64,000 bases of DNA from Candidatus Margulisiibacteriota bacterium (lineage in GTDB: Bacteria > Margulisbacteria > Riflemargulisbacteria > GWF2-39-127): contig QKMY01000023.1 of the NCBI GenBank assembly GCA_003242895.1, positions 1,982-65,981 on the forward strand, read 5' to 3'. Positions 2,953 through 44,202 of this stretch are shown one piece after another. The position numbers and the translations under genes were made by a program. The notes beneath the pieces were generated by a model, which ran no database searches, was not told where the DNA came from, and worked only from the letters and a program-made list of their open reading frames with translations. How positions within the stretch are numbered: position 1 is the stretch's first letter; each line of letters starts with the position of its first letter.

Positions 2953-3126
2953 ATCAAAAGATTCTACTTTCTGTGATTTTTTTGTAAATTTGAAATAGTT
3001 TAATTTTTTCTTCAATGCTTTTTATGGATCTAATTTCAGTGCTTTTTTTCATTTTTCTCTTATTTAAGTTTAAAACATTTTCTTTCATTTTTAAAATACT
3101 CCTTGAATTTATTTTTATTTAACAAG

Positions 3127-3144
3127 AAGCATAATTTGTGCCAA
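3127..3144 (-). promoter_or_regulatory. sigma-54 (-24/-12) promoter candidate upstream of the histidine kinase gene
   Basis: The minus strand reads TTGGCACaaattaTGCTT, with GG and GC spaced by 10 nt. This matches the consensus TGGCAC-N5-TTGCW. It lies about 110-175 nt upstream of the kinase start. Confidence 0.5.
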
Positions 3145-10239: not shown

Positions 10240-10358
10240 TTTGGCACCTCATTGTTTTTCTTGCGTTTTTGAGTCAATAATTTGTTGAGTCATTATATCA
10301 TAGTAAAGCTCATAACCACAATATATCCTGGACAAATTCTATTTCGATTGGTTATAGC

Positions 10359-10387
10359 CTCAGTCCTGCTCCAAAAGCGGGACTGAG
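10359..10387. terminator. GC-rich hairpin between the GH57 gene and the TCA operon (weak terminator candidate)
   Basis: An 8-bp stem (CTCAGTCC...GGACTGAG) with a 13-nt loop. A T-run follows only on the plus side (10402-10407). Confidence 0.25.
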
Positions 10388-10416
10388 ATAGATAATAAAG
10401 ATTTTTTGTGGCTTAA

Positions 10417-26965: not shown

Positions 26966-28786
26966 ATGAAGAGAAAATCTATTAAGGTTATATTGTGCAT
27001 TCTTATTGTATTTGCAATTGTCGTATTAAACCAGTTGCCCTTATTTAAGTTGTTCCACTGGAAACTAACTGATTTGAAGTTTGTCGTGAGAGGCCCGATA
27101 AAGACTCCGACAAATATTGTTATTATCGCTATAGACGATGAGTCCATTGCTTGGTTAGGTACCTGGCCGTGGCCAAGAAATAAATATGCTCAATTAGTTG
27201 ATCAGCTTAAGTTGGCTGGCGCGAAATTGATTTTTTTCGATATTTTATTTGATTCTCCCACGAGCTTTGATCCTGATGATGATGTCAAGTTTGCCCAGTC
27301 GATCAAAAAATCCGGTAATGTCCTCTTGGCTGCGTATTTCAAAAATACTGAAAATAATAGCTTTGTTCGCTATGTTCAGGATCCATTTAATCCTCCGATA
27401 AAACTATTGAAAAATTCTGCACTTGATATCGGAATGGTAGACATTAGTTTTGACAAATCCCAGGTAATAAGAAAAATCCCGATGTTGTTTTCAGGAGATA
27501 TAAAATATCCGAACCTAACATTGCAGGCTGTCCGTTATATTCAAGCAGATAAGCCTCCTATTAAGCATTTATCTTCTTCTATAGTTGTGGGTAAATACGC
27601 AATGCCTATTTCCCAAGACCGGCGGTTCGTTATTAACTATCGCGGTGGGGCTAAATCATTTCCATATATTCCATTCGATAGGGTGATTGATGGCTCGTTT
27701 ATCAAGAAAAATCCCAACTTCCTGAAAGATAAAATCGTTTTAATCGGTGCTACAGCTATTGAATTGCAAGACTATATCGCCACCCCGTTTTCGAATATCG
27801 TCCCGGGAGTGGAAATGTATGCTAATGCCATTCAAACTGTTTTAGATCGTAATTATTTGTACGAAAGTCCTCCATGGTTTGATTTTCTGGTAGTCCTGTC
27901 TTTGTGTATTATCTCGATAAAGTTTTTCTTAAGCTTATCATCCAGAAGAGCCTTTGTGTTTTTCCTTGCCTGTACGATTGTTATTATGGCAGTAGATTTG
28001 GTTGTTTTTTTAAAAATGAATTATATTCTTAAATCGTTTGAATATTTTTCGGCGCTATTGTTTCCCTTTATCGGATTAATTGGTTACAGGTATTACAAAG
28101 AAGAAGAGGAAAAGCGATATGTTAAGAGCGTTTTTTCTCAGTATGTTGATCCCAGCGTTGTTAACAAGCTCCTAGAACATCCGTCTCGTATTATTTTAGG
28201 TGGGGAAAAGAAACAGGTTTCTATTTTTTTTAGTGATATCAGGGCATTTACTACGTTTAGCGAACGGCATTCTCCTGAAGTGGTTGTCGAGTATCTTAAT
28301 GAATACCTTGATGCCATGACCAAAGTGATCTTTGAGCATAAAGGGACGCTGGATAAATATGTTGGCGATGAGATCATGGCAATATACGGTGCACCGCTTG
28401 AGATGCCTGACCACGCAAAAGTTGCAGTAGAAGCTGCGCTAAGCCAGTTGGATATGCTGCAAAAAATTAATGAAAAAAGAGCGAGGGAAGGCCGGGATCA
28501 ATTCGGTATCGGGATGGGAATTCACACCGGGGAAGTGGTTATCGGAAATATTGGCTCTACCATGCATAAGGATTATACGGTTATTGGGGACTCCGTCAAT
28601 CTCGCTGCCAGATTAGAGTCGACAACCAGAAATTATGGGACCAAAGAGAGTCCGGTTAATTTAATTATTTCTGAGGATACCTATAAGTTAGTGAAGGATT
28701 TCTTCATATGTGAATATCTCGATGAAATTATTGTAAAAGGGAAAACGATTCCTGTTAATATCTATTCTGTTGTTGGGAGAAAGTAA
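26966..28786 (+). CDS. CHASE2 sensor domain-containing class III adenylate/guanylate cyclase
   Basis: An N-terminal TM is followed by a periplasmic CHASE2 domain, more TM helices and a cyclase domain (FSDIRAFTTFSE, YVGDEIMAIYGAP). Confidence 0.8.
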   Translation: MKRKSIKVILCILIVFAIVVLNQLPLFKLFHWKLTDLKFVVRGPIKTPTNIVIIAIDDESIAWLGTWPWPRNKYAQLVDQLKLAGAKLIFFDILFDSPTSFDPDDDVKFAQSIKKSGNVLLAAYFKNTENNSFVRYVQDPFNPPIKLLKNSALDIGMVDISFDKSQVIRKIPMLFSGDIKYPNLTLQAVRYIQADKPPIKHLSSSIVVGKYAMPISQDRRFVINYRGGAKSFPYIPFDRVIDGSFIKKNPNFLKDKIVLIGATAIELQDYIATPFSNIVPGVEMYANAIQTVLDRNYLYESPPWFDFLVVLSLCIISIKFFLSLSSRRAFVFFLACTIVIMAVDLVVFLKMNYILKSFEYFSALLFPFIGLIGYRYYKEEEEKRYVKSVFSQYVDPSVVNKLLEHPSRIILGGEKKQVSIFFSDIRAFTTFSERHSPEVVVEYLNEYLDAMTKVIFEHKGTLDKYVGDEIMAIYGAPLEMPDHAKVAVEAALSQLDMLQKINEKRAREGRDQFGIGMGIHTGEVVIGNIGSTMHKDYTVIGDSVNLAARLESTTRNYGTKESPVNLIISEDTYKLVKDFFICEYLDEIIVKGKTIPVNIYSVVGRK

Positions 28787-28876
28787 TTTTTTTAAGGGTA
28801 CGCTCCTGCGCGTATCATGCCAGAATTTTCAGATAAGTATTTGCAATTTAAAATTCATAGCTGCTATAATGAAATA

Positions 28877-31714
28877 ATGAAAAAAATATATATATTGTTG
28901 ATAATGGTGATTCTTTCTGCGGGTGATGTATTTGCCGGAACCTATGACCTGTCTGTTTCTATTATTCCCAGGGCAACGTATTTTATCGATTCAATTTATG
29001 ATGCGGTCCAGGCAAAACAGCAATTAGATGAGATGGCGTCTATTCGTATAGTTAATAATTCTGAAGCAGACAAAAGTTTTAAAATCAGGATTCAAGTATT
29101 TACGAGTTCATTAGGTTCCGAACCTATATTAGATGCAACTTCAGTTCCTCAATCATTTCCAATTCAAATAGCTGCGGGCGGGTCCAGAATAATTAAGAAT
29201 ACAGATCTGGAAATGAACAACAGTAGCCAATTTACGCATAAGATCACAAATAAAGATATGAAAGATCGAGTAAATAGTCGTTATGGAAAAAATATTCTCA
29301 CCGAATATGATGGGATGATGCCTCCGGAAACATTTGTTTATAAAATCTATCTTTTTGATTCTAATTCTCAGGATGATGCCGCCCTTGCACTTGCTTCAAC
29401 GGAAGAATCCATATATCAGCCCCATGAAAAGGGGAATATTGATATTATAACTCCGGGCGAAGGCTCTATAGTAAGTATCGATAATCCATATCCTACGTTT
29501 GTGTGGCAACGGTTAAATGTACGGTCTGGGGTTGACGTAAAATATAATATTAAGATCTGGAAAGTTAAACCGGATGAGAACCCGAATATAGCTCTTAGCG
29601 GTCGGCCAATACTGGATGATACGGTAGAGAATTCCAATAAATATGATTATCCGGGTACGGCTGAACGATTAGAACCTGATACGACTTATGTGTGGCGAAT
29701 ACACGCAACGGATGGTCTTGGGTATACGATAGGCAAAGTGGGAAATAGTGTTGATAGCACCTTTAAAATGTCACCGATCGAGCCGGCACGGCTTTCTGAG
29801 CCAACTTCTGAGATTAGCAGTGTTCCATTTCAGATGAAATGGTCGGAAGTAGCTGGTGCCGCTCATTATGATGTATATATTGATAAAGATGTAAGTTTCG
29901 GTTCTTCGAAGATTTTTAAAGGAGTCAAGGTGACTGAGCTTGCTCAGGAAGATGCCACGTATTATCTTCCTGGTACAAAGTATTATTGGTATGTTCAGGC
30001 CTATGATGACTCCGGCAAAAAATGGGGGAAAAAAAGTGAGACTGGAAGCTTTTTATTTAACCAGGAAATAATGTTGAAGACTCCTGTTGCCGTGACGATT
30101 TTAAACGTGCCCCCGGAATTCTCCTGGTCGGAATTATCTGGCGCAAGCAGCTATCTATTGGAAATTGATAAGACAGAGTTATTTCAAAAACCTGATGCTT
30201 TTAAATGTGAAGGGACAACATTTACTCCGGATAATTATATTTTTGACCCTGAAGCTACCTATTTCTGGCGCGTTAAAGCAATTGGCAGCAATGGGAAACA
30301 AATTGGTTCCGTTTCACAAAGATCGTTTTTCAAAATGCCTGACTTACCGGTCCCCTCTTTAATTTCGCCGATGGATACAAATGTCCTGAGCGATTTGCCT
30401 GAGTTTAGTTTCCGATCTGTTAACTGGGCGGACAACTATATAGTCCAGATCAGCTCCGATATAGCTAATTGGACAAATGCCATAGCAATTAACACTATTC
30501 GAGCCGCCGTTCAATACCCTGAGAACCAGCCTGCTTTGAAACCAGGCAAGACCTATTACTGGCGGGTAATACCGATAGATGAAAAAGGAAAAAGTTATAG
30601 TAAATTCAGTGAAATAGGTAGCTTTAGAGGGAAAGAGATCCCCAAAATAAGTTTAATTTCACCGGTTAACGCTGAACTGGAGTCACCTATTGTGAGTTTT
30701 ATCTGGAATGGGATTGAAGGTGCTTCAAAATATAAGCTCTTAATCAGTGAAGATGCCGGGCTAAGCAGTGCAAAGAGGTTTGAGGTAAACGGTACGAGTT
30801 ATACTCTTGAACAGAAAGAAGCTTTAAAACAGGGCACCAGCTATTATTGGGCAGTAGCAGCATCGGATGTTAACGGATTGCCTTACGGAGATACCAGTAA
30901 TCCGGCGATTTTTAAATTAGTTTCCCATGACAATAATAGTTTTTCTGGGGTTGAGATGCTTTCTCCTATTAATGAGACATTGTCTGGCGTATCTGTTACT
31001 TTTAAGTGGCTGAGTATTCCCTCAGTTAATGAATATGTAATTGCAATTGGCAAAAGTGAAGACTTGTCCGACGCAACAAAATATAAAGTCAACGATAACA
31101 GTATAACTAATGAAGCATTGAAACTTGAATTAGCCATGGATACCCAGTATTACTGGCAAGTTCAGGGAACCGGGAAGGCTGGAGTTATTGGAGGGCCAAG
31201 TAAAATCGGTAAGTTCAGAGTGCCGATGGTTAAGCTGGAGCTTTTGTCACCACTAAATTTGGCTTTAGATAATAATGATATTAGTTTTTCATGGAAAGAG
31301 TATCCAGGAGCCCGGAAATACCTATTGCAGTATAGCAACGATGAAAAATTCTCGACGTTTAAGGAAGAACAATGCGAGTCAAACAAAGCTACGATCAAAG
31401 GGCTTGAATATAATAAAGAATATTTTTGGAGGGTTCAGCCCTTAGATCTAAAGGGTGAACCTAATGGAGCCATGAGCGTGTCGGGTAAGTTTAGTATTAA
31501 AGATAACAATGAGCTTGAGGCGGCTACCCCGGAAGATATTGAAGAATTAATCCTGTTTTTAAAGGGATATGTGAAGGAAATTAGTGTTGCGGAACTGATA
31601 ACCGGCTTTAAGCTAAAGAAAGCAACTCTCGATGGTACGTCAGAAATAAGTAAAAAATCAGTAAAAGATATCATTAAAGGCATTTTGAAGATTAAGTCAA
31701 TAAAGGTTAAATAA
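28877..31714 (+). CDS. secreted protein with about 9 tandem fibronectin-III-like repeats
   Basis: Has a signal peptide (MKKIYILLIMVILSAGDVFA). Roughly 90-aa repeats each end in a T(Y/F)YW(R/Q/A)V...D..G motif. The ORF track starts 60 nt earlier. Confidence 0.7.
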   Translation: MKKIYILLIMVILSAGDVFAGTYDLSVSIIPRATYFIDSIYDAVQAKQQLDEMASIRIVNNSEADKSFKIRIQVFTSSLGSEPILDATSVPQSFPIQIAAGGSRIIKNTDLEMNNSSQFTHKITNKDMKDRVNSRYGKNILTEYDGMMPPETFVYKIYLFDSNSQDDAALALASTEESIYQPHEKGNIDIITPGEGSIVSIDNPYPTFVWQRLNVRSGVDVKYNIKIWKVKPDENPNIALSGRPILDDTVENSNKYDYPGTAERLEPDTTYVWRIHATDGLGYTIGKVGNSVDSTFKMSPIEPARLSEPTSEISSVPFQMKWSEVAGAAHYDVYIDKDVSFGSSKIFKGVKVTELAQEDATYYLPGTKYYWYVQAYDDSGKKWGKKSETGSFLFNQEIMLKTPVAVTILNVPPEFSWSELSGASSYLLEIDKTELFQKPDAFKCEGTTFTPDNYIFDPEATYFWRVKAIGSNGKQIGSVSQRSFFKMPDLPVPSLISPMDTNVLSDLPEFSFRSVNWADNYIVQISSDIANWTNAIAINTIRAAVQYPENQPALKPGKTYYWRVIPIDEKGKSYSKFSEIGSFRGKEIPKISLISPVNAELESPIVSFIWNGIEGASKYKLLISEDAGLSSAKRFEVNGTSYTLEQKEALKQGTSYYWAVAASDVNGLPYGDTSNPAIFKLVSHDNNSFSGVEMLSPINETLSGVSVTFKWLSIPSVNEYVIAIGKSEDLSDATKYKVNDNSITNEALKLELAMDTQYYWQVQGTGKAGVIGGPSKIGKFRVPMVKLELLSPLNLALDNNDISFSWKEYPGARKYLLQYSNDEKFSTFKEEQCESNKATIKGLEYNKEYFWRVQPLDLKGEPNGAMSVSGKFSIKDNNELEAATPEDIEELILFLKGYVKEISVAELITGFKLKKATLDGTSEISKKSVKDIIKGILKIKSIKVK

Positions 31715-32688
31715 TGAAATTTAAGACTATAGCATCGTTACTATTATTTCTGTTCTTACTCTGCAATGTTGTTTTTGCTGATAGTAAACCGGTTGCGACC
31801 TTAACTGTTTTTTTCGGTGAGGTCCTCTATAAGAATGCTTCCGGGAGTAATTGGGCACTCGTTAAACGAGGAATGTTTTTCTACCCTGGTGACCGGATCG
31901 CGACGAAACTGGATGGGAAAGCTGAGATATATTTCACTGACGGATCAATACTTCGGGTTGCTAATGAGTCTGAAATGGAATTCACTATCCAGGACAATAA
32001 AAAGAAGCGTTCGGTATTTCTTGTTTTTGGAAAAGTTTGGAACAAGGTAACAAAAGGTACTAACTTCGAAATAGAGTCAATACACGGCGTAGCCTCTGTT
32101 AAAGGTACGGAATTCGATGTGGCAGTGAAAGACGAAATGGATGTATGGGTTGCGGATGGCGCGGTTGAGATCTCTAATGATAAAGGCAAGGTATTGAGTG
32201 AGCGTAATACCTATACGAGAATTAAAAAAGATAGTGAGCCCAAAAAAGAATCAATAAATCAGGATCAGCTGCCTAAACGAGATGACATGCAATCCAAGTT
32301 ATCGCTCATGCTTAATTTTGTCGGTGACAAAGTTGAGGATAAGCCGTTTATTATTAAAGCTGCTGTTAAAGACAATAAAACTGAAAAATTATATAAGGGT
32401 GAGGTTGTCGAAGTCAGGTTTGTGTCCAATGATAAAAGAATGAAATTTAGTAGCGACAATAAAGAGTGGAATGATGAAGTAATTGTGAAAATAACTGATG
32501 GTCAGGGCGAACTAAAAGTCAAAGGTCAGTCAGGACAATCCGAATTTATGGTGATTGGTAAGAACCTTCCGGGAATATCGGTCGAAGTGACTATCAAGCC
32601 TGAAATAAAAGCCAAAAAGATTTCTTTAAGTTATATAGATAGCGATAATAAAGAAAAGAATTTAGATCTTGAGTTTGAGAGAAAGTAG
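31714..32688 (+). CDS. FecR domain-containing secreted protein
   Basis: Has a signal peptide and a FecR-type beta-sandwich profile (GD.I.T..G.AEI.F.DGS..R...ESE.EF). Its start overlaps the upstream stop by 1 nt. Confidence 0.65.
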   Translation: MKFKTIASLLLFLFLLCNVVFADSKPVATLTVFFGEVLYKNASGSNWALVKRGMFFYPGDRIATKLDGKAEIYFTDGSILRVANESEMEFTIQDNKKKRSVFLVFGKVWNKVTKGTNFEIESIHGVASVKGTEFDVAVKDEMDVWVADGAVEISNDKGKVLSERNTYTRIKKDSEPKKESINQDQLPKRDDMQSKLSLMLNFVGDKVEDKPFIIKAAVKDNKTEKLYKGEVVEVRFVSNDKRMKFSSDNKEWNDEVIVKITDGQGELKVKGQSGQSEFMVIGKNLPGISVEVTIKPEIKAKKISLSYIDSDNKEKNLDLEFERK

Positions 32689-32691
32689 ATT

Positions 32692-35082
32692 ATGAAAAGA
32701 ATCCATGTGCTTTTCTTTTTTGTGTTTTTCTATTTGATCATTATTAATTTGTCTTATGCTGATGGTATTATTCATACCAGAATTGATAAAATAATTGCAG
32801 ATCAACCGGCACAATTTACCGTAGAGCTTGAAGGGATAACCTCAAACGTAGAGGTTGTAATTTATTATAAAATCGGTAAGGAAAATCTTTATAATGAAGC
32901 AAGTATGCTTTCTATCGGGAATAACGTTTATACGACAACGTTAACACCGGTTTTCGCAAAAGATGATGTTTTTTCCTATTATATAGCTGTTAAAATGGAT
33001 AATAAATTGATGCTGTCATTGCCGGAAGTGAATCCGAAAGAATATCCTTTTATTGTGAATGTTACCAGCGACGAATTCACTCCCAAAGTGCGTTTTTTGA
33101 CCCCGGCAAATAACGAGGTCGTAAGGAACGGATTCCCTTGCGTTCTTCTCACGTTTGATGACGAATTGTCCCAATTGGACATGAAAACCTTTAAAATGAC
33201 TATTAATGGGGAGGATGTTACTGATTATGTGTCATTAAGTCAGACATTTGCTAATTATGTTCCTAAGAAAGAACTCAAAGAAGATGTTTATTCTATAAAA
33301 GTTACTATTAAAGATGTCAGGGGGAAAGTTCATTCGATTAATTCCTCTTTTACTTTTAGACGAAAAGACCAGGACTTCCTGACATATAATGGGTCACTTT
33401 CCCTTGATAACTATTTTTATAATACAGATAAATATGCCGAAAAAGTTATTCGCGAACCGTTTGAATCTGAGGCAGTCGCCGATATTAACCTTAAATCGTG
33501 GATATTGAACTCAAATATTAATGTTAAACGCGATAGCAAAGAGTCTTCGGATAACCAGCCGTTAAACAGGGTATCATTCGGTATCTGGGATGATAAAAAA
33601 AATATCGATATCAAATGCGGAGATACTAATCCGGTGATGTCGAATATGGCTCTTAATGGTATGTTAGTACAGGGAAATGATATCGATCTCGATGTCTTTG
33701 GAGTTGTCGGTTTAAATAAGTTGGTAAAAATAAAGTATATTTCAGGTATAACCAGAAAGGCCATCGATACTTCTTCAACTGCCAATATGGATAATGTGTC
33801 TTATGAACAAGATATAAGCGCGTATAAAATATCTACGAACCTTTTTGGGTTCGAGAATAATGTCAGCTATATGCATATTAAAGACAACGAAAACAGCTTG
33901 CCTTTGTATTCTAGCTTACCGTCGAGCGACAGGCTACTAAAGCCACGAGAGAACCATGTTGTGTCGGTTGAGAATAACATGAGGTTGTTTGATCTGACTG
34001 ATATTAAGTTAGAAACAGCTGCATCTGTTTATTACAGTGATTCTACTGCCGGATCTATCAACGTTTCTGACCTTAATCTTCCAATAAAAGAAGAAACAAT
34101 CAAACAGTATGAAAAAACAATCCCGATAAAATCAAGTATGACTGTCGGAGCTGCAACAAATCTTGAGGTCAGAACCCCGGTCCTGTTCCGGGAATTAACC
34201 TTTAAAGGTGGAACGAAATGGGCGCATCCCAGTTTTACCAGTCTAGGGAGCAGTTCTGTTAAAAAGGATAATTTTGAGTATTCCGGTGAGCTTGGTGTTA
34301 GATTGCTTAAAAATCTTTTTTCTTTGCGAGGAGGCATTAAGAAGCAGAATGATAATGTTATGCAGTCTGCCAGCGAAAATACCACCTATACGTTAGGCTA
34401 TAATGTCGATTCAACCCTGGTTATTCCAAATGTGGCTATTCTGTATCTCGGATTCAATAATTCTGATAAAGAGAATAAAACAAATGACAATGAGGTTGTT
34501 ACCGGTGATCGACGGGTATCCAATAAGCTGTTGACTGTTATGATGGGAATTGGCGGGATAACTTTTGATATTGCTTCGGTTGCTAATAAAATCAATATTA
34601 ACTATAACTATAACAAATATACGGATGACGCGATTACTGTTAATAGTTTTGATGCGACAGCCTTCGGCATTAATTACCAGACAGAGATTTTACCCTTTAA
34701 ACTAAAAGTTGATTTTAGCAGATCAGATAAACTGGCGAAAAGCACGACACCCAATACCACGACTTACACGACATTAGGCGGGAAGGCTTTTTATGACGTT
34801 ATACCAAAGATCTTCACTTCTTATGCCGGATTGAAGCTTTCTAAAGGGTATAATAACGGTAATGACATTGCCAAACGTATAGATAACACAAATATGACTC
34901 TTACTGTTGGGGGTTCCTACAAATTCGATCAGCAGGCATGGATTTTCTACGATTCGTTGTTAACTGTGAACTGGGATCTTATTACTCTAACTGATGCGAA
35001 ATCTAAGTCGGAAGATGTTGATTACAGAGACAAAAATTTTTCGGAATCAATTTTAACGCTGAAAGTATCGACCGTATTCTAG
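32692..35082 (+). CDS. large secreted protein, probable outer-membrane beta-barrel (C-terminal Phe)
   Basis: Has a signal peptide. The sequence is rich in alternating amphipathic strands and ends ...LKVSTVF (terminal aromatic). Confidence 0.55.
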   Translation: MKRIHVLFFFVFFYLIIINLSYADGIIHTRIDKIIADQPAQFTVELEGITSNVEVVIYYKIGKENLYNEASMLSIGNNVYTTTLTPVFAKDDVFSYYIAVKMDNKLMLSLPEVNPKEYPFIVNVTSDEFTPKVRFLTPANNEVVRNGFPCVLLTFDDELSQLDMKTFKMTINGEDVTDYVSLSQTFANYVPKKELKEDVYSIKVTIKDVRGKVHSINSSFTFRRKDQDFLTYNGSLSLDNYFYNTDKYAEKVIREPFESEAVADINLKSWILNSNINVKRDSKESSDNQPLNRVSFGIWDDKKNIDIKCGDTNPVMSNMALNGMLVQGNDIDLDVFGVVGLNKLVKIKYISGITRKAIDTSSTANMDNVSYEQDISAYKISTNLFGFENNVSYMHIKDNENSLPLYSSLPSSDRLLKPRENHVVSVENNMRLFDLTDIKLETAASVYYSDSTAGSINVSDLNLPIKEETIKQYEKTIPIKSSMTVGAATNLEVRTPVLFRELTFKGGTKWAHPSFTSLGSSSVKKDNFEYSGELGVRLLKNLFSLRGGIKKQNDNVMQSASENTTYTLGYNVDSTLVIPNVAILYLGFNNSDKENKTNDNEVVTGDRRVSNKLLTVMMGIGGITFDIASVANKININYNYNKYTDDAITVNSFDATAFGINYQTEILPFKLKVDFSRSDKLAKSTTPNTTTYTTLGGKAFYDVIPKIFTSYAGLKLSKGYNNGNDIAKRIDNTNMTLTVGGSYKFDQQAWIFYDSLLTVNWDLITLTDAKSKSEDVDYRDKNFSESILTLKVSTVF

Positions 35083-35128
35083 CTTTTTCATTTTGTGTCT
35101 GTTCTTTTTTACCGATAATGTAACTACT

Positions 35129-35689
35129 ATGATAAATAACCTGACGTTTGAACAACAAAAAGTACAATACTCGTTTTCTCGTGGAGAAGCTACTTCCGGC
35201 AATAAATTCTCGTCTTATTCAAAGGAAACCCTTTACGCTGAAAGTACTCTTCTGACAATTAATGATGATAAGGTTGAAATAGTACATAGAACGTTAGAAA
35301 TTGAAATCAATAAATCTTTTAAAACGAGCCTTCCTGAGCTATCTGATAGGTTGAACTCATCTAAAATCCCAGGATATATCAACTCATCGCTTGTCCCCGA
35401 CTATTGGAATGCTGAGAATACCTCGTCCAGGATAGCAGATTTGGCAACTTCTTTAGCTGGGATGTGGAAAACTCAAAATCCGGATAAAGATCAGAATGAA
35501 TTCCAGGAATTTCTAAATAAATTGAAAAGTTCGATTGAAGAAGGGTTTTCACAAGCTCTGCACATTCTTAGTAATACTATTAGCTCTCCAGTCCGGGATT
35601 TGATCAATGACACCTACGCTTTGACTATGGACAAGGTTGACAAGTCATTTGCTGATTTGATTCAGGACTACGATAAAAAAGTCGCTTAA
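35129..35689 (+). CDS. hypothetical protein
   Basis: A 186-aa ORF from the ATG at 35129. It is the last gene of the secreted-protein operon and has no recognisable family. Confidence 0.45.
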   Translation: MINNLTFEQQKVQYSFSRGEATSGNKFSSYSKETLYAESTLLTINDDKVEIVHRTLEIEINKSFKTSLPELSDRLNSSKIPGYINSSLVPDYWNAENTSSRIADLATSLAGMWKTQNPDKDQNEFQEFLNKLKSSIEEGFSQALHILSNTISSPVRDLINDTYALTMDKVDKSFADLIQDYDKKVA

Positions 35690-36040: not shown

Positions 36041-36404
36041 AATGAACGCTCCTTTTTAGAATGTATTTTAACCTGTCAGCTATAATAACGTTAAATCTGA
36101 GATATGTTAAGGATATAAAAATACGGCAGCCGTTTGGCTTTTGGTTATTAATAGAATGCATTGATGATGCTCGTGGTTTAGCTTCTTTTTTTCGCATATT
36201 TTTTAATATTATAGCGCTTCTATCCGTAGCGTAGAATTCCTTTTTCCTAGTTGACGCAGGGCCCAGCTTTCCCTTTGAGCCTCTGACGTGCTTCCTGGCG
36301 CATTCTTCTTTTGCATTGCTTTCCAATAGTATTTTATAAAATTCTAAGTATATGATAAACTTAGAAAATCATTGTTATTCAATATAAAAGTTAGGAAATC
36401 CCAA

Positions 36405-37868
36405 ATGATAGGTTTCGTGCTTCTTCTTGTTTTTGCATTGCTTGCGTTTTTAATGTACTTAGGCAAAATACCCGCCTTACTTGCGCTTCCGGTACTTGCT
36501 TTTTTGCTTACTTTTATTGCGGGAGTGCCATTTTATTTTAATCAGTATCCGGCAGAAATGAGCTTTATTCTAAAATTTGGAAAATCGATATTAGACTCAC
36601 AGCATCTTGTCTCATCAACGGTTATTTCTGATGGGATTCCACGGTTACATGTCGCTATTTTAACTGTCATGATAGGCGGAATTTTTGGGTATTTTTTAAA
36701 AGCCGCTGGGATAAGCGAATCATTAGTTCGCAAAGTAGCTGAATTGGCTGGAGATAAGCCTTTTGTCATAGCTCTTGTCCTTACGCTCGTGGTGAGTTTT
36801 TTGTTTACTACATTGGGTGGCTTGGGTGCGATTATTCTTGTTGCGAATATTTATCTGCCCGTCCTGTTATCAATAGGGATACCTCCGTTGCTTATCGGCA
36901 GTCTGTTCCTAATGTCCATTTCTTTTGGCGGGATATTCAATATGGTGAACTGGGCGCTTTATGTTGACATCCTGGGACTGTCCCAACAACAAATTATGAT
37001 ATATGCGCTCCCGTTGGGTGTTGTTTTTTTAGTTGTTATGATACTTTTTATGATTATAGAGTTCAAAAAAGCGCGGATCCCGGTTCCGACTGCTGCTGTT
37101 GTCAAAATATTTGCAATTTTAGCAACTATTTGTGCCGTATTCGTATGGTTTAAAGCTACTAATCCGATCAGCCCTGAAATGTTCCTTATGCTTAAGTGGG
37201 CTTATAAGGCTCTATTACTTCTTTTATTCATTATTCCTGCATTTAGCAGAAAGTTTTCATGGATAGCTATGCTTGCTCCTTTCGTGCCGATCAGCCTTGT
37301 GCTTTTTCTTGGTTGGAACATTAATCCGGCGTTTCTGCTCGGTATCATATTTTTATTTATTACCACCATGAACATCCGTAAATCTGATAGTTTTTCCTCT
37401 CGTTCGAAGCTCTTGATCCAGTCCTCCATCGAAGGAATACAGGGCGTAGCACCTGCGGTAGCTATTATGATAGGGATTGGTATGGTCTTGATAGCTGTAG
37501 TTCAGCCTCCGGTAAGCCAGAGTTTGTCGCCGTTGTTAAATGCGGTGTTGCCTACGAGTCCAGCCGGATATGTGATTATTTTCACCATCCTTGCTCCTTT
37601 AGCATTGTATCGGGGACCGCTTAATCTCTGGGGGATGGGAAGCGGGCTCATGCAACTTATTAAAGTGAGTGGGCTTAGCAGTATGTCAATTATGGCAGCG
37701 TTCATGTCAACCGGTCAGATTCAGGGGGTCTGTGATCCTACAAATACTCACAATGTCTGGGTCGCTAATCAACTGAAAATAGAGCTCAATGCGCTCTTGC
37801 GGAAAACATTACCTTATATGTGGGTAATAGCTTTATGCGGTTTGCTTTTAGGGGTTTATGTTAAATAA
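36405..37868 (+). CDS. multi-pass membrane permease/transporter (family uncertain)
   Basis: About 487 aa with at least 10 predicted TM helices. It is the first gene of a translationally coupled operon. The ORF track extends to a TTG at 36372. Confidence 0.6.
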   Translation: MIGFVLLLVFALLAFLMYLGKIPALLALPVLAFLLTFIAGVPFYFNQYPAEMSFILKFGKSILDSQHLVSSTVISDGIPRLHVAILTVMIGGIFGYFLKAAGISESLVRKVAELAGDKPFVIALVLTLVVSFLFTTLGGLGAIILVANIYLPVLLSIGIPPLLIGSLFLMSISFGGIFNMVNWALYVDILGLSQQQIMIYALPLGVVFLVVMILFMIIEFKKARIPVPTAAVVKIFAILATICAVFVWFKATNPISPEMFLMLKWAYKALLLLLFIIPAFSRKFSWIAMLAPFVPISLVLFLGWNINPAFLLGIIFLFITTMNIRKSDSFSSRSKLLIQSSIEGIQGVAPAVAIMIGIGMVLIAVVQPPVSQSLSPLLNAVLPTSPAGYVIIFTILAPLALYRGPLNLWGMGSGLMQLIKVSGLSSMSIMAAFMSTGQIQGVCDPTNTHNVWVANQLKIELNALLRKTLPYMWVIALCGLLLGVYVK

Positions 37869-40017
37869 AGTTAGAATAGGAATCGATGTCGGGGGGACTT
37901 TTACTCATGCAGCGGCTCTCACTGCGGATCGGTTCGCTCTCATTGCTCAATCGAAAGTTCCGACAACTCACGATGCCAAGGAAGGCGTGGCGCTTGGCAT
38001 AATTCATGCACTTCGGGAACTCATGGAATTGGGCAACATTAATCCGGACCAGATTTCTTGCATTGCCCATTCGACGACACAAGCTACTAATGCCTTATTG
38101 GAGGGCGATGTTAGTCCAGTTGGAATTATAGCTGTAGGCTGCGGCATTGAGGGTAAAATGGTAAGGGCTGAGACTATCCTTCAGCCAATTGAACTTGCGC
38201 CGGGACGTTTTTTGACCAGCTATCACAAATATATAGAGCTTGAAAAGGGCGCTCAAGTTGATCCTTTGACATTAGCAACAGCTATCGAAGAATTGAAACA
38301 AAACGGTGTAGCAGCAATTGTGGCAGTTACTGCTTTTAGTGTTGATAATCCGGTAATTGAAAACGAGATTGCAGAAATAGCACGGGAACACGGGTTGCCG
38401 GCTACTGCGACGCATGAAATTTCTTCCCTTTATGGGCTTACAGCCCGAACCCGTACTGCGGCTATTAATGCAGCGATTATGCCAAAAATGATCTATACCG
38501 CAGATATGACCAAACTCGCAGCGCTCTCCATGAACATCCATGCGCCATTAGTTGTGATGCGTTCTGATGGTGGTGCTATGAATATTGAAGAAATGAAGAA
38601 GCGGCCGATTCTGACGCTTCTTTCCGGACCAGCCGCGGGTGTTGCCGCTGCGTTGATGGCAGCCAAGATCGCGGATGGCATATTTCTGGAAGTCGGAGGT
38701 ACTTCTACTGACATTTCCTGTATTATTAATGGTCATCCGTCAATCAAAATGGCACGCATCGGAGATCACAAAATTTATCTTAATACTATAGACATTCGAA
38801 CAATTGGTGTCGCCGGTGGATCGTTAGCAGCGATAAAGGATAGCAAAATTGTTGGTGTTGGGCCCAGAAGTGCTCATATTGCAGGATTAAAGTACAGCGC
38901 TTTTGCCGGGCACGATAAAACTTTTGATACATCCGTCCCGAAGCTTATTTCCTTGAAATCCGATAGTTGTCAGTACCTTGCACTGGAGCATCCTGAGGAT
39001 AGGTCTCAGTGGACAGTGACAACCACGTGTGCGGCGAATCAGCTTGATCTGGTCCCAAAAGGTGATTATGCCGAAGGGAATAAAGAACTCGTAAATTCTG
39101 CCTTTAAAAAATTTTCTGATTTCCTGGGAACGGAGTCTCCCAATGCGCTTGCATCAGAAATTATGGAAATAGGGGCTGCTCCGATTATTGATACCGTAAC
39201 AGAAATTATCAGAGAGAAAAAACTTGAGATTTCACGATTAGCTCTGGTTGGTGGCGGTGGCGGTGCGAGTGTATGGATTAATTATATCGGGGGGAAAATA
39301 GGCTGCCAGTCGACGCTTGTTGAGAATGCACCTGTAATTTCTGCGATAGGTGCTGCGATGGCCCTACTACAGGAAACTGTCGAACGGACAATTATTGATC
39401 CGTGTCCGCAGGATTTCATAGATATTAGAGAAAAGGCTGAGACTTCGTTGATTCGTGGTGGCGCTAACCCGGAATCAATTGAGGTTAGGGTCGAGGTTGA
39501 TTCCCAGCGGGGCGTTTTGCGTGCTACGGCTGTTGGTTCTTTGCATATGGTCGTGCAAGAAGAGACGCTATCAGAAACCGAGCTGCTGTTGCGCGCGGAA
39601 AAGATCCTTAATGTATCGAAAGAAGATGTCGCATTAGTTGCGATGACTTCCAACTTTATTGTTTTTCAAGGTAAAATAATCAAGAAGCAATTTTGGGGCC
39701 TGATTAAGAAGCATCAGGAGCCTTGGACGGTTTTAGATCTGAGAGGACGAGTCAGAATGGGGGCTGCCCATGGTAAGATTCTCATCCTCAAATCGGGTCA
39801 ATTGGCGGCAAAACTCAGCGAGAGTGTCAATGAATATTCGATCTATGGGGATGGCGGACAGATACTTCCTTCGGTTTTTTTAGTAACGAATAGCCGGACT
39901 GTCGACCTTTCAGGTCTTGTAAGCGTTGAACAAATGATTTCTATTTGCCAGGAGGAACAGAAGCGATTAAGTGATGATGATAATGTTGTTCTTGCCATAA
40001 ATATAGATAATAGATAA
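37858..40017 (+). CDS. hydantoinase/oxoprolinase (HyuA) family protein
   Basis: The N-terminal IGIDVGGTFTH is the ASKHA-type Hydant_A_N signature. Length is 719 aa. It overlaps the upstream gene by 11 nt. Confidence 0.65.
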   Translation: MLNKVRIGIDVGGTFTHAAALTADRFALIAQSKVPTTHDAKEGVALGIIHALRELMELGNINPDQISCIAHSTTQATNALLEGDVSPVGIIAVGCGIEGKMVRAETILQPIELAPGRFLTSYHKYIELEKGAQVDPLTLATAIEELKQNGVAAIVAVTAFSVDNPVIENEIAEIAREHGLPATATHEISSLYGLTARTRTAAINAAIMPKMIYTADMTKLAALSMNIHAPLVVMRSDGGAMNIEEMKKRPILTLLSGPAAGVAAALMAAKIADGIFLEVGGTSTDISCIINGHPSIKMARIGDHKIYLNTIDIRTIGVAGGSLAAIKDSKIVGVGPRSAHIAGLKYSAFAGHDKTFDTSVPKLISLKSDSCQYLALEHPEDRSQWTVTTTCAANQLDLVPKGDYAEGNKELVNSAFKKFSDFLGTESPNALASEIMEIGAAPIIDTVTEIIREKKLEISRLALVGGGGGASVWINYIGGKIGCQSTLVENAPVISAIGAAMALLQETVERTIIDPCPQDFIDIREKAETSLIRGGANPESIEVRVEVDSQRGVLRATAVGSLHMVVQEETLSETELLLRAEKILNVSKEDVALVAMTSNFIVFQGKIIKKQFWGLIKKHQEPWTVLDLRGRVRMGAAHGKILILKSGQLAAKLSESVNEYSIYGDGGQILPSVFLVTNSRTVDLSGLVSVEQMISICQEEQKRLSDDDNVVLAINIDNR

Positions 40018-40117
40018 GTTCATCTTTTTTGAATATTTTTTGATGAAGAAACAAGAAGTAATTTGAAAAGAACTATTTAAGTTTTATTAATTAATAATAC
40101 AAACATAGGAGAAATTG

Positions 40118-40792
40118 ATGGGTAGGTTAACCGAAGTGTTGAAACAAAAAGGTTTTGTTATCGTTGTCAGTTTGCCAAGAAATGATAAAGACCTGGCAAA
40201 AGCGGCGTTTGAGTGTGGTGCAGATGCAATTAAGGTCCATATTAATGTCGAGCATAAGGCAAGCGGTACACGCTTCGGGAGTTGGTCGGAAGAAAAAGAG
40301 ACTATCCTCGATATAATTGCTTCCGTTGACTGTCCAGTCGGCTTGATGCCGGGAGCGACGATAACTCCTACTTACTATGAATTACAGGAAGCTTCAGATT
40401 GCGGTGTCGATTTTATTGATATATATGACTATGACATGCCGTTGTGGATGCTGTCCTTACAGAAGATAGGCAAAATGATTGCTGTCGGCAGCAATTATAC
40501 CTTGAATGATGTGAGATCACTAGAAGAAATCGGTGCTGATTTTATCGAAGCGTCAATCGTACCGTCGACATCGTACCGCCAACCGTTAACAGTAAAAGAT
40601 CTCGAAATATATTACACGATGACCCAGTCAACTTCGAAGCCAATTCTTGTGCCCAGCCAGAAAAAACTTGAACCGGCAGATGTCCCTTTGTTTAAAGAAA
40701 TAGGCATAAAAGGGTTGATACTGGGTACAATTTCTCTGGGAGATTCACCGCAGAGCTTCAGGGAAAGGCTTCCGCTATTTATTAATGGCTAA
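40118..40792 (+). CDS. TIM-barrel protein, possibly NanE-like (ManNAc-6-P epimerase-like) fold
   Basis: A 224-aa protein with weak resemblance to NanE (GFVIVVSLP...GADAIKVHI). An AGGAGAA RBS is present. The family assignment is tentative. Confidence 0.4.
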   Translation: MGRLTEVLKQKGFVIVVSLPRNDKDLAKAAFECGADAIKVHINVEHKASGTRFGSWSEEKETILDIIASVDCPVGLMPGATITPTYYELQEASDCGVDFIDIYDYDMPLWMLSLQKIGKMIAVGSNYTLNDVRSLEEIGADFIEASIVPSTSYRQPLTVKDLEIYYTMTQSTSKPILVPSQKKLEPADVPLFKEIGIKGLILGTISLGDSPQSFRERLPLFING

Positions 40793-42158
40793 GGTACTTG
40801 GGTTCATACCTCTCGACGATCGACCGGTTTCCCTGCAACAGTCAGTGATGCTTGCACAGATGGCTGGATATGAGGTGATGTTGCCGCCAATTCAGCTTCT
40901 TGGCCATAGAATGATAAGCGGTAATCCTGATGCAATTCTAAAGTGGTTCTTCGAAAATGTTTCCTCTGTAGATGGTTGGGTGATTTCTTTGGATATGTTG
41001 GCGTACGGGGGACTGGTAGCTTCTCGAGAGATAACTGAGGATCTGGCGTTAATACTTTTAAGATTACAGCGCTTAGCTTTGATTAAAATAGCCTATCCGA
41101 CCATTCCATTATACGCTTTTCAGTCTATCCGCAGACTTTCTACCACAGTTAAATCTTCTGATGATCTTGAAAAATGGGAAATTAGTCATAGAACCGGAGT
41201 CCTCAGTGACCTGCGTACGAGGAATCATAAGGTTAACCTGTATAGTCTGGAACAGTTATCGAAAAAAATATTTGATTTTGTTTTGCTATTGCAGGAAGAT
41301 GCTAATCTTGACGGTCCTCATCAGGAAGAACACAAAATATTGCAAGAATATATTAAGGAAAAAGGAATTTCTCAAAATACGTGCATAACAACTGGAACCG
41401 ATGAAGGATCTGCTGTCCTTATGTCTCGGTTAATGTGCGATTTAAGTAAAATAAAACCAAAGGTGTATGTTCTTTTTTCTTCTGAAAATGGCTCTCGCCG
41501 AGTTGCATTGTACGAAGACAGATGTATATGTGATACTGTGCGCGGGCAGATCAGAGCTATTGGTTGTGATACTTGTCTTGACCTGGAATCGGCCGATTTT
41601 GTTCTCGCTGTTTGGTGTCCGGATCATCCGGGGATCGACCTTATGTTCTCGAAGCCTTTTATGCCCAATGAACAGGATATCTCTGTATTTTTAGATAAAA
41701 TAAACATTTTAATTGAAGAGAAATACCCTCTTGTTATTGCTGATCTCGCATACTCTAATGGCTCTGATAAGGATTTTTGCGACAAATTATCAACACATAT
41801 CGAGATCTCCGGTTTGGCAGGCTATGCGGCTTGGAATACTGCAGCAAATAGTGTCGGGCATGCTCTGGCTCAGGGAGTACTTTCATTGAATAATAAAAGA
41901 TTTCTTGCTTTGAGGTTTTTGGAAGATTGGGGGTATCAGTCTGAGATTAGACCGGTGCTCAATGAGGTTCTTAAGACCAATGGCTATGATATTTGGAATT
42001 TAACTCCTGAACAGGTTAATTCAGCTGAGGATTTTTTGAACAAGGCAATGCGGGAATGGCAGCGAAAAAAGTTAGGTAATCAATTTGGAGCGGAATTATC
42101 AAACATTCGGTTTAACCTTCCTTGGCAACGAACATTTGAAGTGGAAGTTACGATATGA
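40785..42158 (+). CDS. hypothetical protein, resembles the DUF4127 family
   Basis: A 457-aa protein whose N-terminus LGFIPLDDRP recalls DUF4127 N-termini (from memory, unverified). It overlaps the upstream gene by 8 nt. Confidence 0.45.
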   Translation: MAKVLGFIPLDDRPVSLQQSVMLAQMAGYEVMLPPIQLLGHRMISGNPDAILKWFFENVSSVDGWVISLDMLAYGGLVASREITEDLALILLRLQRLALIKIAYPTIPLYAFQSIRRLSTTVKSSDDLEKWEISHRTGVLSDLRTRNHKVNLYSLEQLSKKIFDFVLLLQEDANLDGPHQEEHKILQEYIKEKGISQNTCITTGTDEGSAVLMSRLMCDLSKIKPKVYVLFSSENGSRRVALYEDRCICDTVRGQIRAIGCDTCLDLESADFVLAVWCPDHPGIDLMFSKPFMPNEQDISVFLDKINILIEEKYPLVIADLAYSNGSDKDFCDKLSTHIEISGLAGYAAWNTAANSVGHALAQGVLSLNNKRFLALRFLEDWGYQSEIRPVLNEVLKTNGYDIWNLTPEQVNSAEDFLNKAMREWQRKKLGNQFGAELSNIRFNLPWQRTFEVEVTI

Positions 42159-43510
42159 TCAATGATTATGAATGTGATGTATTAGTTTGTGGCGCTGGTT
42201 CCGCTGGTTGTTGCGCCGCGATTGCTGCTGCCAGAAATGGCGTCTCGACAATAGTTGTAGAAGAATCAGACATAATTGGCGGGACTATCGTGCAGAGCTT
42301 GGTATATCCGTTAATGACTTTTCATGCGGCACCAAATCTTCAAGTTATCAAGGGAATTCCCGAAGAAATAGTTGGAACGGCTGTACGTGAAGGTAGTCAG
42401 GGTCATATTCCTGATCCGCTAGGATGTGCGCCGACAATTACAATGATTGAACCGGAACAATTCAGTTCTTGTGTCTACCAAAAAATGATGCAGGCCGGGG
42501 TTATCATTATTAATAATACGAAAGTTGTCAATATAATTCGCGATGAGCAAGCAATTATTGGAGTTATCGCCCATACTGATGATAATCAAATAGTATCTAT
42601 TAACGCTAAAGTGGTTATTGACGCTACAGGAGATGCCGATATTGCATGCCTGGCTGGGGTTCCATACGTATATGGCCGTATTTCTGACAATAAGACACAG
42701 CCTATGACGCTGATCTTTACGATGAGAAACGTTAATAATAATGTTGTGCGACAATATATCAAAGATAATCCTACTGAATTTGTTTTGAGTCATGAAGCCA
42801 GGAACAATATTGTGGAAGTTCCGTATTTAGCCGTGTCAGGTTTTTTTCGACTGGTCCGGGAAGCACAGCAAAAAGAGGGACTGGTTTCTTTCCGAGACCG
42901 TGTTTTGTATTTCGAAACAGCACAAAAAGGTGAAGTTTCTGTAAACATGACACGTATATTTGATATGGACGGATCGAATGAAAATGAGGTTGAAAAGGCG
43001 AGGGGAACTGCTTTATTGCAAGTTCAAGAATGTTACAGGCTATTCAAACACTATATTCCAGGTTTCGAAGATGCATATATTCATACTATTGCTCCTAAAA
43101 TCGGAGTTAGGGAAACGAGGCATATAGTTGGAAAATATACCTTGTCAGCACAAGATGTGTTGTCTGGCAGGAAATTCGATGATGGTGTAGCTTGCGGTGC
43201 CTTCCCGATTGACATCCACTCTCCCGACGGTTCAGCTATAAACATGCAAAAGATGCCTCAGGGCACATATTATACAATTCCCTATCGGTGTTTAATTCCT
43301 GAAAATATTGAATCATTAATTGTCGCTGGGAGGTCTATTTCAGCAACTCATGAAGCCAGTGCTTCCGCACGGTTGGCTCCTACATGTATGGCGCTAGGGG
43401 AAGCTGCCGGAACTGCTGCTGCTGTTTCTGTAAGGAAAAATACCAGGATTTCTCTATTGGACTCAAGCGAAATACGACAAGAACTTATTGGTCAGGGAGT
43501 CTTCTTGTAA
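42155..43510 (+). CDS. FAD-dependent oxidoreductase (glycan-associated PF12831-like family)
   Basis: Has the N-terminal dinucleotide-binding motif CDVLVCGAGSAGCCAAIAAARNG. The start overlaps the upstream stop (ATGA). Confidence 0.7.
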   Translation: MINDYECDVLVCGAGSAGCCAAIAAARNGVSTIVVEESDIIGGTIVQSLVYPLMTFHAAPNLQVIKGIPEEIVGTAVREGSQGHIPDPLGCAPTITMIEPEQFSSCVYQKMMQAGVIIINNTKVVNIIRDEQAIIGVIAHTDDNQIVSINAKVVIDATGDADIACLAGVPYVYGRISDNKTQPMTLIFTMRNVNNNVVRQYIKDNPTEFVLSHEARNNIVEVPYLAVSGFFRLVREAQQKEGLVSFRDRVLYFETAQKGEVSVNMTRIFDMDGSNENEVEKARGTALLQVQECYRLFKHYIPGFEDAYIHTIAPKIGVRETRHIVGKYTLSAQDVLSGRKFDDGVACGAFPIDIHSPDGSAINMQKMPQGTYYTIPYRCLIPENIESLIVAGRSISATHEASASARLAPTCMALGEAAGTAAAVSVRKNTRISLLDSSEIRQELIGQGVFL

Positions 43511-43551: not shown

Positions 43552-44202
43552 ATGAGAGTATTTAACCTTAAAATTATCGCAGCACCTATAGAGAGCATCC
43601 GCGTTAAGTTTAATGATAGTGTTCAAGCTATTTCCCCTGATTCTTTTGAGGAAATATTCGGTATAAAATACACAAATAATCTGCATATTGATCCGGATAT
43701 AATTGATATTCACAACGTTGAATTTGCGAATATGAGTGTGACTGATAGGTTGGCTCTAATTTTAAACTATCTTAGAAATAGAAAGTATTATTATTTTATT
43801 GATAAGGGAATTACTGCAAATGTATATATTTCCTATATAAATGAAAGAATTGGATACGGATTATTTGCAGACGAGGATATCAAAAAAAATTCCTGGATCG
43901 GAGAGTATTCAGGTCGACTGCATTTGGCAAATGGAAAGAGAGAAGAGTCTGAATATGGGTGGCTCTATCCAACAATGAAAAACAATATCTTTACAATTGA
44001 AGCATCGAAGTATGGCAACTATACCCGATATGTTAACCATTCTTTTAAGCCGAATGTTGTCGCCAGAAGCATCTATTTTAAGGACTATTGGCACTTTGGC
44101 TACGTAGCAATTAAAGCTATTTCTAAAAATGAACAGCTATTAGTCAATTATGGAGATTTTTACTGGGAACGCCGGCTCGACACTCCGGAGATGACTTCTT
44201 AG
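43552..44202 (+). CDS. SET domain protein (putative protein-lysine methyltransferase)
   Basis: SET signatures are present: RYVNHSFKPNV (the NHSC motif region) and LLVNYGDFYW (the ELxxDY region). About 216 aa from the ATG at 43552. Confidence 0.65.
   Translation: MRVFNLKIIAAPIESIRVKFNDSVQAISPDSFEEIFGIKYTNNLHIDPDIIDIHNVEFANMSVTDRLALILNYLRNRKYYYFIDKGITANVYISYINERIGYGLFADEDIKKNSWIGEYSGRLHLANGKREESEYGWLYPTMKNNIFTIEASKYGNYTRYVNHSFKPNVVARSIYFKDYWHFGYVAIKAISKNEQLLVNYGDFYWERRLDTPEMTS

Follow-up and report, generated by a model that had tools for sequence, protein, structure and literature searches.

Bacterial clusters for the use of N-acetylneuraminic acid (Neu5Ac) or N-acetylmannosamine (ManNAc) canonically combine NanT or SatABC with NanA, NanK, NanE and an RpiR-type NanR, and the pairing of a ROK kinase with NanE denotes the phosphorylation of ManNAc followed by its epimerisation to N-acetylglucosamine 6-phosphate. 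GntP and GntK form a sugar-acid permease-kinase pair, and CarA/CarBC, DgpA/DgpBC, LgdA/LgdB and NanOx/YjhC are oxidoreductase systems that cleave sugars by transient oxidation. Here we describe a cluster of five genes, located in a 64-kb stretch of DNA (the window) from an uncultured Candidatus Margulisiibacteriota metagenome-assembled genome (MAG), that resembles each of these systems in part and departs from each of them in others. We propose that the locus serves, as a composite unit, the catabolism of a charged compound resembling a manno-type N-acetylhexosamine, by way of a phosphosugar, a reading to which we give about an even chance.

Five consecutive open reading frames (ORFs) on the + strand fill positions 36405-43510 of the window. 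The first (36405..37868) encodes a 487-aa permease; its ATG at 36405 is preceded at a distance of 6 nt by AGGAAA, a motif resembling a ribosome-binding site, and an alternative TTG start lies upstream at 36372. It is followed by genes for a 719-aa HyuA-type ATPase of the hydantoinase/oxoprolinase family and ASKHA fold (37858..40017; PF05378 and PF01968), a 224-aa NanE-related (beta/alpha)8 barrel recognised by fold and profile comparison (40118..40792, in an ORF read from 40115/40118, with an AGGAGA ribosome-binding site 5 nt 5' of the ATG at 40118), a 457-aa DUF4127 protein (40785..42158; PF13552) and a 451-aa FAD-dependent oxidoreductase (42155..43510; PF12831). The barrel and the DUF4127 protein are 100% identical to the products of locus tags DKM50_03385 and DKM50_03390, respectively. 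In the last three proteins the conserved domain starts at once, with no N-terminal hydrophobic leader, as read from the translations rather than with a signal-peptide predictor. Exactly as the initial annotation had listed them, the permease and ATPase genes overlap by 11 nt (37858-37868), the barrel and DUF4127 genes by 8 nt (40785-40792) and the DUF4127 and flavoprotein genes by 4 nt (42155-42158, ATGA). The ATPase and barrel genes do not overlap and are separated by an A+T-rich spacer of 100 nt (40018..40117), in which consensus scans revealed neither a terminator-like nor a promoter-like site, the site counts over the cluster being about those of shuffled sequences.

Like the nan clusters, the locus provides a transporter, an ASKHA-fold ATPase and a NanE-fold phosphate-binding barrel, to which its relatives add an RpiR regulator, and sister DUF4127 loci carry a genuine NanE and a ROK kinase. 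Unlike them, it has no NanA, its barrel scores below the cut-off of the NanE Pfam model and is missing a lysine found on strand 3 of NanE, its ATPase is of the HyuA type and not of the ROK type, and its DUF4127 protein and flavoprotein are without counterpart in the nan pathway. The five family assignments made at the outset (permease, hydantoinase-like protein, NanE-like barrel, DUF4127 protein and FAD oxidoreductase) all held in Pfam, HHalign, Foldseek and orthologue comparisons. Its accompanying statement that no characterised pathway fits was borne out as well: none of the five proteins reached an NCBIfam equivalog cut-off, and no mention of DUF4127, PF13552 or IPR025394 was found in the searched literature. 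The same literature yielded nothing on PF02638 or on hydantoinase, flavoprotein and ManNAc combined, and nothing relevant on PF12831.

The five-gene set is not unique to this genome. The same genes in the same order were found in a second Margulisbacteria MAG (L090), at least three Elusimicrobia (L001, L003 and L092; 41-61% identity per protein), an unclassified MAG (L007) and a metagenomic contig (L091), the 11-nt permease/ATPase overlap being identical in L001, L003, L090 and L092. All five families also occurred together, in rearranged order, in Clostridium tertium DSM 2485 (L024), the related contig L094 and Lentibacillus halodurans (L054), with an RpiR regulator heading the cluster in the first two and a ROK-type regulator adjoining it in the third; a Clostridium sp. 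contig (L035) carried four of the five families before its end. Since the overlap is kept in four relatives from other lineages and the set is kept across phyla, the five-gene arrangement is more than chance, and the persistence of linkage across phyla despite shuffled order points to functional coupling of the set. The initial annotation had described a single translationally coupled unit, but the locus consists of two modules, permease-ATPase and barrel-DUF4127-flavoprotein, whose boundary in the window is the 100-nt spacer. The two halves were separated in L090 by an opposite-strand gene for a 604-aa protein, and in L007 by ~3 kb. Moreover, the first module occurred alone, as a permease-ATPase-DUF309 triplet, in Melainabacteria-like genomes (L087, 8001-12030; L088, 8001-11998; L089, 8001-11958), where no DUF4127, barrel or flavoprotein gene lay within 8 kb on either side. 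Ser/Thr kinases and GGDEF proteins flanked these triplets.

It could be that the two modules are independent and merely adjacent, the pair handling a common organic acid and the trio another compound, made internally or imported separately. The solitary triplets, whose ATPase is still 44-45% identical to that of the window, speak for such independence, as do the spacer at the module boundary, the insertion at the same place in L090 and the ATP-binding cassette (ABC) importers that replace the pair in many trio loci. Yet the pair lay within 10 kb of a DUF4127 gene in ~12 loci (the window, 9 of the 83 loci over which DUF4127 neighbours were counted, and L090-L092), from at least six lineages and in at least four orders relative to the trio (ahead of the barrel gene, following the flavoprotein gene, between these two, or following DUF4127), and in L094 the ATPase and permease genes are split apart and both still belong to the RpiR-headed cluster. 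Because linkage persists through rearrangement, the evidence argues that the two modules work together, and we consider their independence unlikely.

A survey of DUF4127 genes in which each species was represented by a single genome yielded at least 455 loci spread over Bacillaceae, Clostridia, Chloroflexi, Armatimonadota, Actinobacteria, Acidobacteria and Bacteroidota; 80 of these were fetched, and their neighbours were clustered, annotated with Pfam through cluster representatives and counted over 83 loci. PF12831 flavoproteins were present in 34 loci, sugar ABC permeases in 27, sugar solute-binding proteins in 25, the barrel in 23 by clustering and in 27 once tblastn matches were added, genuine NanE in 23, ROK kinases and Gfo/Idh/MocA oxidoreductases in 20 each, and GH38 in 12. 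Further recurrent neighbours were GHL10, GDPD, an esterase, the N-acylglucosamine 2-epimerase family and a BadF/G-type kinase, together with RpiR, LacI, GntR and ROK-HTH regulators. None of the 83 loci held both the barrel, present in 27, and true NanE, present in 23 (Fisher one-sided p 1.7e-5, a value that ignores kinship among loci). ROK kinases, in turn, accompanied NanE in 17 of the 20 ROK loci (p 4e-10) and the barrel in none (p 1e-4), both values likewise ignoring phylogenetic non-independence. Barrel-type and NanE-type loci were interleaved in the DUF4127 tree. What these carbohydrate-uptake loci have in common is DUF4127, the invariant core enzyme across the related loci; they end in either ROK plus NanE or the barrel. 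RpiR regulators with a SIS domain, which typically sense phosphosugars, were found inside the Clostridium versions of the cluster.

Several other neighbours of DUF4127 were seen in these loci. A secreted family without Pfam or NCBIfam match ('unk452'; 411-525 aa, with signal peptides) accompanied barrel-DUF4127 pairs in 13 loci from Elusimicrobia, Armatimonadota, Clostridium and Actinobacteria (for example L001, 4349-5737; L003, 12753-14102 on the - strand; L024, 5758-7212; L013, 7157-8515; L005, 11483-12778) and may be an extracellular enzyme or binding protein for the substrate; the 64-kb window holds no homologue of it. Nor does the window hold homologues of the accessory families c17, c36, c57 (Armatimonadota), c33/c102/c103, c65/c66, PhyH c15, c20 and c28. 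A 431-aa protein encoded 3' of DUF4127 in Kallotenue has a signal-peptide-like N-terminus and, by eye, 'unk452'-like motifs; as a candidate kinase it was rejected, having no similarity to the ATPase. In the Armatimonadota/Zipacnadia loci L012, L013, L028, L052 and L059, a cofactor-independent phosphoglycerate-mutase-like metalloenzyme (PF10143/PF01676), which is another link to phosphorylated substrates, precedes the barrel-DUF4127 pair; none of these loci carried a flavoprotein, and most carried a secreted 'unk452'-type protein. Finally, a Bacillota MAG (L085) encodes two DUF4127 paralogues (1071-3143 and 9995-11668), each with its own sugar ABC transporter, and the barrel and short flavoprotein adjoin only one of them.

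The DUF4127 protein of the window matched PF13552 over its full length (E 7e-119; 398 bits against a cut-off of 27) and gave an AlphaFold2 (AF2) model of high predicted accuracy (pLDDT, the predicted local distance difference test score, 95.9). It is a cytoplasmic alpha/beta protein. Sequence and profile searches of the PDB were empty, and comparison of the model with solved structures gave no real match (template-modelling (TM) scores of ~0.2-0.3). The weak matches were mostly TIM-barrel enzymes, with xylose-isomerase-type barrels among them, and at a TM score below 0.3 the possibility of a PF01261 xylose-isomerase-like protein was ruled out. The 25 residues that were invariant over 60 homologues include five Arg, seven Asp/Glu, three Trp and one Tyr; His, Cys and Lys are absent from them. 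To judge from this make-up, the protein would be suited to binding and acid/base chemistry on an anionic sugar, and since the invariant set lacks Lys, His and Cys, a Schiff-base aldolase or Ser/His hydrolase mechanism is disfavoured. We propose that DUF4127 carries out the bond-cleaving step.

These properties also bear on whether the locus is a variant Neu5Ac operon in which the roles of NanT, NanK and NanE fall to the permease, the ATPase and the barrel, respectively, and that of NanA to DUF4127 as a non-homologous replacement. Sister loci with a solute-binding-protein ABC importer, ROK, NanE and RpiR have no recognisable aldolase, an anion-type permease fits a carboxylated sugar, and the five invariant Arg of DUF4127 would suit carboxylate binding. 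However, DUF4127 has neither an invariant Lys for a Schiff base nor an invariant His, the flavoprotein has no role in Neu5Ac cleavage, the GH38, GDPD, GHL10 and phosphomutase-like neighbours do not fit, and no sialidase was found among the annotated neighbours. The hosts, moreover, are groundwater and sediment Margulisbacteria and Elusimicrobia (habitats taken from database names only), for which host sialoglycans are an unlikely resource, and we regard a Neu5Ac variant as distinctly improbable. A hidden NanA in the NanE-type loci was separately looked for and rejected: none of the 10 candidate ORFs there (278-336 aa) encoded a DHDPS/NanA-like sialate aldolase, and none was found in the window cluster.

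Although related to NanE, the barrel is not a NanE by its sequence. It had no Pfam or NCBIfam family match even at E=10, its best score against PF04131 (NanE) being 11.4 bits, below the gathering cut-off of 27. A profile alignment by HHalign of 20 barrel orthologues with 20 true NanE sequences nevertheless reached 92% probability (E 6e-7 over 200 columns). The AF2 model (pLDDT 97.4) matched TrpA, TrpC, ThiE, NanE (1y0e) and ribulose-phosphate 3-epimerase (RPE) in Foldseek at E 1e-7 to 1e-9, with a value of 1.5e-7 for S. aureus NanE 1y0e, and on this model the barrel is predicted to be of the ribulose-phosphate-binding type. The glycine-rich phosphate-binding region of strands 7/8 is kept, G196, G203 and G208 being invariant or nearly so in two alignments. 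Other invariant residues of the family are K39, G75, G79, G96, E144, P179 and Q181, and nearly invariant are H41, N43, H46 and S146, with K39, H41, N43 and H46 all on strand 2. We propose that the barrel epimerises or isomerises a phosphosugar. Few proteins belong to its family: 331 of 1.84e9 representatives matched at E<=1e-10, and the named members are all annotated 'hypothetical'. Some members carry an N-terminal domain of ~220 aa without Pfam match (P0424, P0435 and P0433) and others a ClpX-type C4 zinc finger (P0371 and P0440); as clues to function, these fusions were uninformative.

The flavoprotein matched PF12831 over residues 8-444 (model positions 1-416; E 7e-111) and belongs to a cytoplasmic, short subfamily of that family. 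Against characterised enzymes in NCBIfam and the PDB, only its N-terminal GxGxxG-type FAD motif (VCGAGSAG) matched. Flavoproteins of the same short type (37-55% identity) were found in 10 barrel loci and on a short contig of 4 kb (L029) and in no NanE locus; NanE loci carried instead a longer PF12831 subfamily, 20-30% identical. FAD-type and Gfo/Idh/MocA-type oxidoreductases alternate beside DUF4127. This alternation is reminiscent of CarA/CarBC and its like, in that a flavin- or NAD-dependent oxidoreductase lies beside a conserved non-redox enzyme in carbohydrate loci; it differs from them in that DUF4127 is not a PF01261 protein and the flavoprotein is of PF12831 and not a GMC oxidoreductase.

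The permease had no Pfam or NCBIfam match even at E=10, and sequence and profile searches of the PDB were empty. Among 10 orthologues, three gave weak matches (two to CitMHS, best E 8e-4, and one to DcuC). Its family comprises more than 1,500 relatives, labelled 'citrate transporter' or 'gluconate symporter-like' in databases, two of which carry a precomputed PF02447 (GntP) annotation. From these resemblances it appears to be a secondary carrier of the ion-transporter superfamily. Carboxylate carriers are the families nearest to it, and its substrate is probably an organic anion; the imported compound is thus suggested to be charged. Like GntP-GntK, an anion carrier gene here lies next to, and overlaps, a gene for an ASKHA-fold ATPase, and the pair moves between genomes as a unit, but the carrier falls under Pfam thresholds and the ATPase belongs to the hydantoinase/oxoprolinase family, in which no plain kinase is known. 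A NAGPA-domain protein (PF09992, phosphodiester glycosidase) was encoded near the permease in a Saganbacteria genome (L086, 4962-5981), and another near the five-gene cluster in L091 (14071-15597, - strand). Together with GDPD genes near other loci (L003 and Bacillaceae), these NAGPA genes hint at phosphodiester-linked glycopolymers as a source of the substrate.

The ATPase matched Hydant_A_N (PF05378, E 2e-28) and Hydantoinase_A (PF01968, E 1e-54), and shares these domains and its ASKHA motifs with HyuA/HyuB, OplA/B, CapA/B and the acetone and acetophenone carboxylases. The motifs RxGIDVGGTFT, EVGGTSxDIS and GPRSAHIA were invariant in 13 orthologues and correspond to the phosphate-1, phosphate-2 and adenosine motifs of CapA (DxGGT, DxGGT and GxxPGP; PMC8453981), the third being partly conserved (GPRSAH against GxxPGP). 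The nearest solved relatives, N-methylhydantoinase, 5-oxoprolinase and acetophenone carboxylase, matched residues 6-341 of the 719 only, and the C-terminal half had no detectable similarity to solved members of the family. Unlike enzymes of the HyuA/B type, the ATPase comes without a B subunit, has a permease as its conserved partner and scores far under equivalog cut-offs, the best NCBIfam match being caprolactamase subunit alpha (87.5 bits against 1000). Neither the window cluster nor any of ~15 related loci whose Pfam annotation was precomputed contained a Hydantoinase_B (PF02538) gene. Enzymes of the family divide the work: phosphorylation of the substrate falls to the A subunit, and its hydrolysis or carboxylation to a distinct B subunit that contains metal (PMC8453981). 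Since no B subunit is encoded in the loci examined and phosphorylation falls to the A subunit in the family, the most parsimonious view is of a plain kinase or an activating protein, and we propose by analogy that the protein may be an ATP-dependent kinase or activator of the imported compound. It is the sole candidate in the window for forming a phosphosugar. That the unit instead degrades a cyclic amide (lactam- or hydantoin-like, such as a sugar lactam), with ATP-driven ring opening as by 5-oxoprolinase or caprolactamase and the remaining enzymes processing the product, would accord with the lactams, hydantoins or ketones used through ATP-dependent activation by characterised HyuA-family members (PMC8453981) and with the caprolactamase match, far under its cut-off though it is, but we think it highly doubtful, for ring opening needs the metal-containing B subunit (PMC8453981), likeness to solved HyuA proteins ends at residue 341 and the contextual genes all point to carbohydrates. 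The two substrates ventured by the initial annotation thus part company: the amino sugar is favoured by the NanE, ROK, RpiR and GH38 contexts, and the cyclic amide gains no support, because the Hydantoinase_B partner is absent from the loci examined.

In the composite catabolic unit that we propose, the permease would take up an organic anion and the ATPase would spend ATP to phosphorylate or otherwise activate it, much as a GntP permease and GntK kinase do. DUF4127 would then catalyse the central bond-cleaving or rearranging step, the flavoprotein an oxidation that enables or finishes that step, and the barrel would turn a phosphosugar into a compound able to enter central amino-sugar metabolism, occupying the place held by the ROK kinase and NanE in sister loci. 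A phosphosugar intermediate is suggested because the barrel has a phosphate-binding fold and RpiR regulators sense phosphosugars in known cases. The most likely substrate is a derivative of a manno-type N-acetylhexosamine that bears a carboxyl or phosphate group and is obtained by scavenging glycans or polymers of the cell wall. An uptake-plus-conversion module for a small molecule, as first supposed, was in essence the right description given the permease, the enzyme families and the cross-phylum synteny, and may be refined to two modules with an amino-sugar leaning. A more far-reaching version, which we put forward only tentatively, is that DUF4127, the PF12831 flavoprotein and the NanE-derived barrel constitute an unrecognised, aldolase-independent and redox-assisted route releasing N-acetylhexosamine phosphate from charged glycan fragments, such as ManNAc-bearing units of cell-wall polymers. 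In it, the ATPase would be the first simple small-molecule kinase of the hydantoinase family coupled to a secondary transporter, and DUF4127 a new enzyme family with a fold lacking close solved relatives.

A number of observations weigh against the proposed N-acetylhexosamine pathway. To judge from the sequence comparisons made here, no experiment or characterised homologue appears to anchor any of its steps, and the amino-sugar link is borrowed largely from the NanE sister loci, which carry the different, longer flavoprotein subfamily. The invariant strand-3 Lys of NanE (GLYK motif), which we take to be its catalytic Lys, is missing from the barrel, where the aligned position reads VGIVPG, and the reaction may therefore not be a 2-epimerisation. 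No kinase could be recognised in loci combining the barrel with ABC importers (L057, L063, L071, L076, L005 and L016); either a phosphosugar scheme is not the whole story or these genomes encode the kinase at another site. Because the ATPase is kept (44-45% identity, with ~120 invariant positions including the ATP motifs) in genomes with no DUF4127 within 8 kb on either side, its substrate may be a common metabolite unrelated to the barrel-DUF4127-flavoprotein module. In two loci (L051 and L077) the ATPase is found alongside both a BadF/G-type kinase and NanE, and we accordingly rejected the idea that the ATPase is a simple swap for the ROK (hexosamine) kinase. Among the ORFs scanned, no regulator, glycosidase or nagA/nagB-like gene was found near the window cluster, which, since neither regulator nor glycosidase accompanies it, is a minimal version of such loci.

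Upstream of the permease gene, a run of + strand genes (26966-35689) encodes a CHASE2 adenylate cyclase, a 965-aa fn3/Ig-repeat protein, a FecR-like protein, a 796-aa protein and a DUF5610 protein, and has the appearance of a surface or signalling unit in its own right; the 796-aa protein has a signal peptide and a C-terminal Phe and is outer-membrane-like, without a Pfam family. Downstream, at 43553-44202 (+), 42 nt 3' of the flavoprotein gene, lies a gene for a SET-domain protein (PF00856, E 1e-20). SET-domain methyltransferases are uncommon among free-living bacteria, and a SET-domain gene beside the cluster was seen in none of the related loci. Relatives of the 796-aa protein, the DUF5610 protein, the SET-domain protein and two further ORF products of 85 and 188 aa were likewise found in none of the related loci compared, for which reason these five flanking genes were rejected as members of the unit.

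Altogether, the cluster represents a genuine and conserved pathway, as yet uncharacterised, of the familiar uptake-plus-catabolism kind and assembled from unstudied enzyme families. Three of its five families (DUF4127, the NanE-like barrel and the permease) have no characterised member, and a fourth protein is a hydantoinase-family ATPase without the partner subunit needed by every studied member. Cultured hosts, namely Clostridium tertium DSM 2485, Neobacillus niacini NBRC 15566 and Cytobacillus oceanisediminis, allow direct testing. Once identified, the reaction of DUF4127 would annotate hundreds of operons, and its study may yield a new bacterial route to amino sugars from glycans or from the cell walls of other bacteria. 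The cluster also adds one defined nutrient-acquisition trait to the picture of Margulisbacteria and Elusimicrobia, two groups represented mostly by MAGs.

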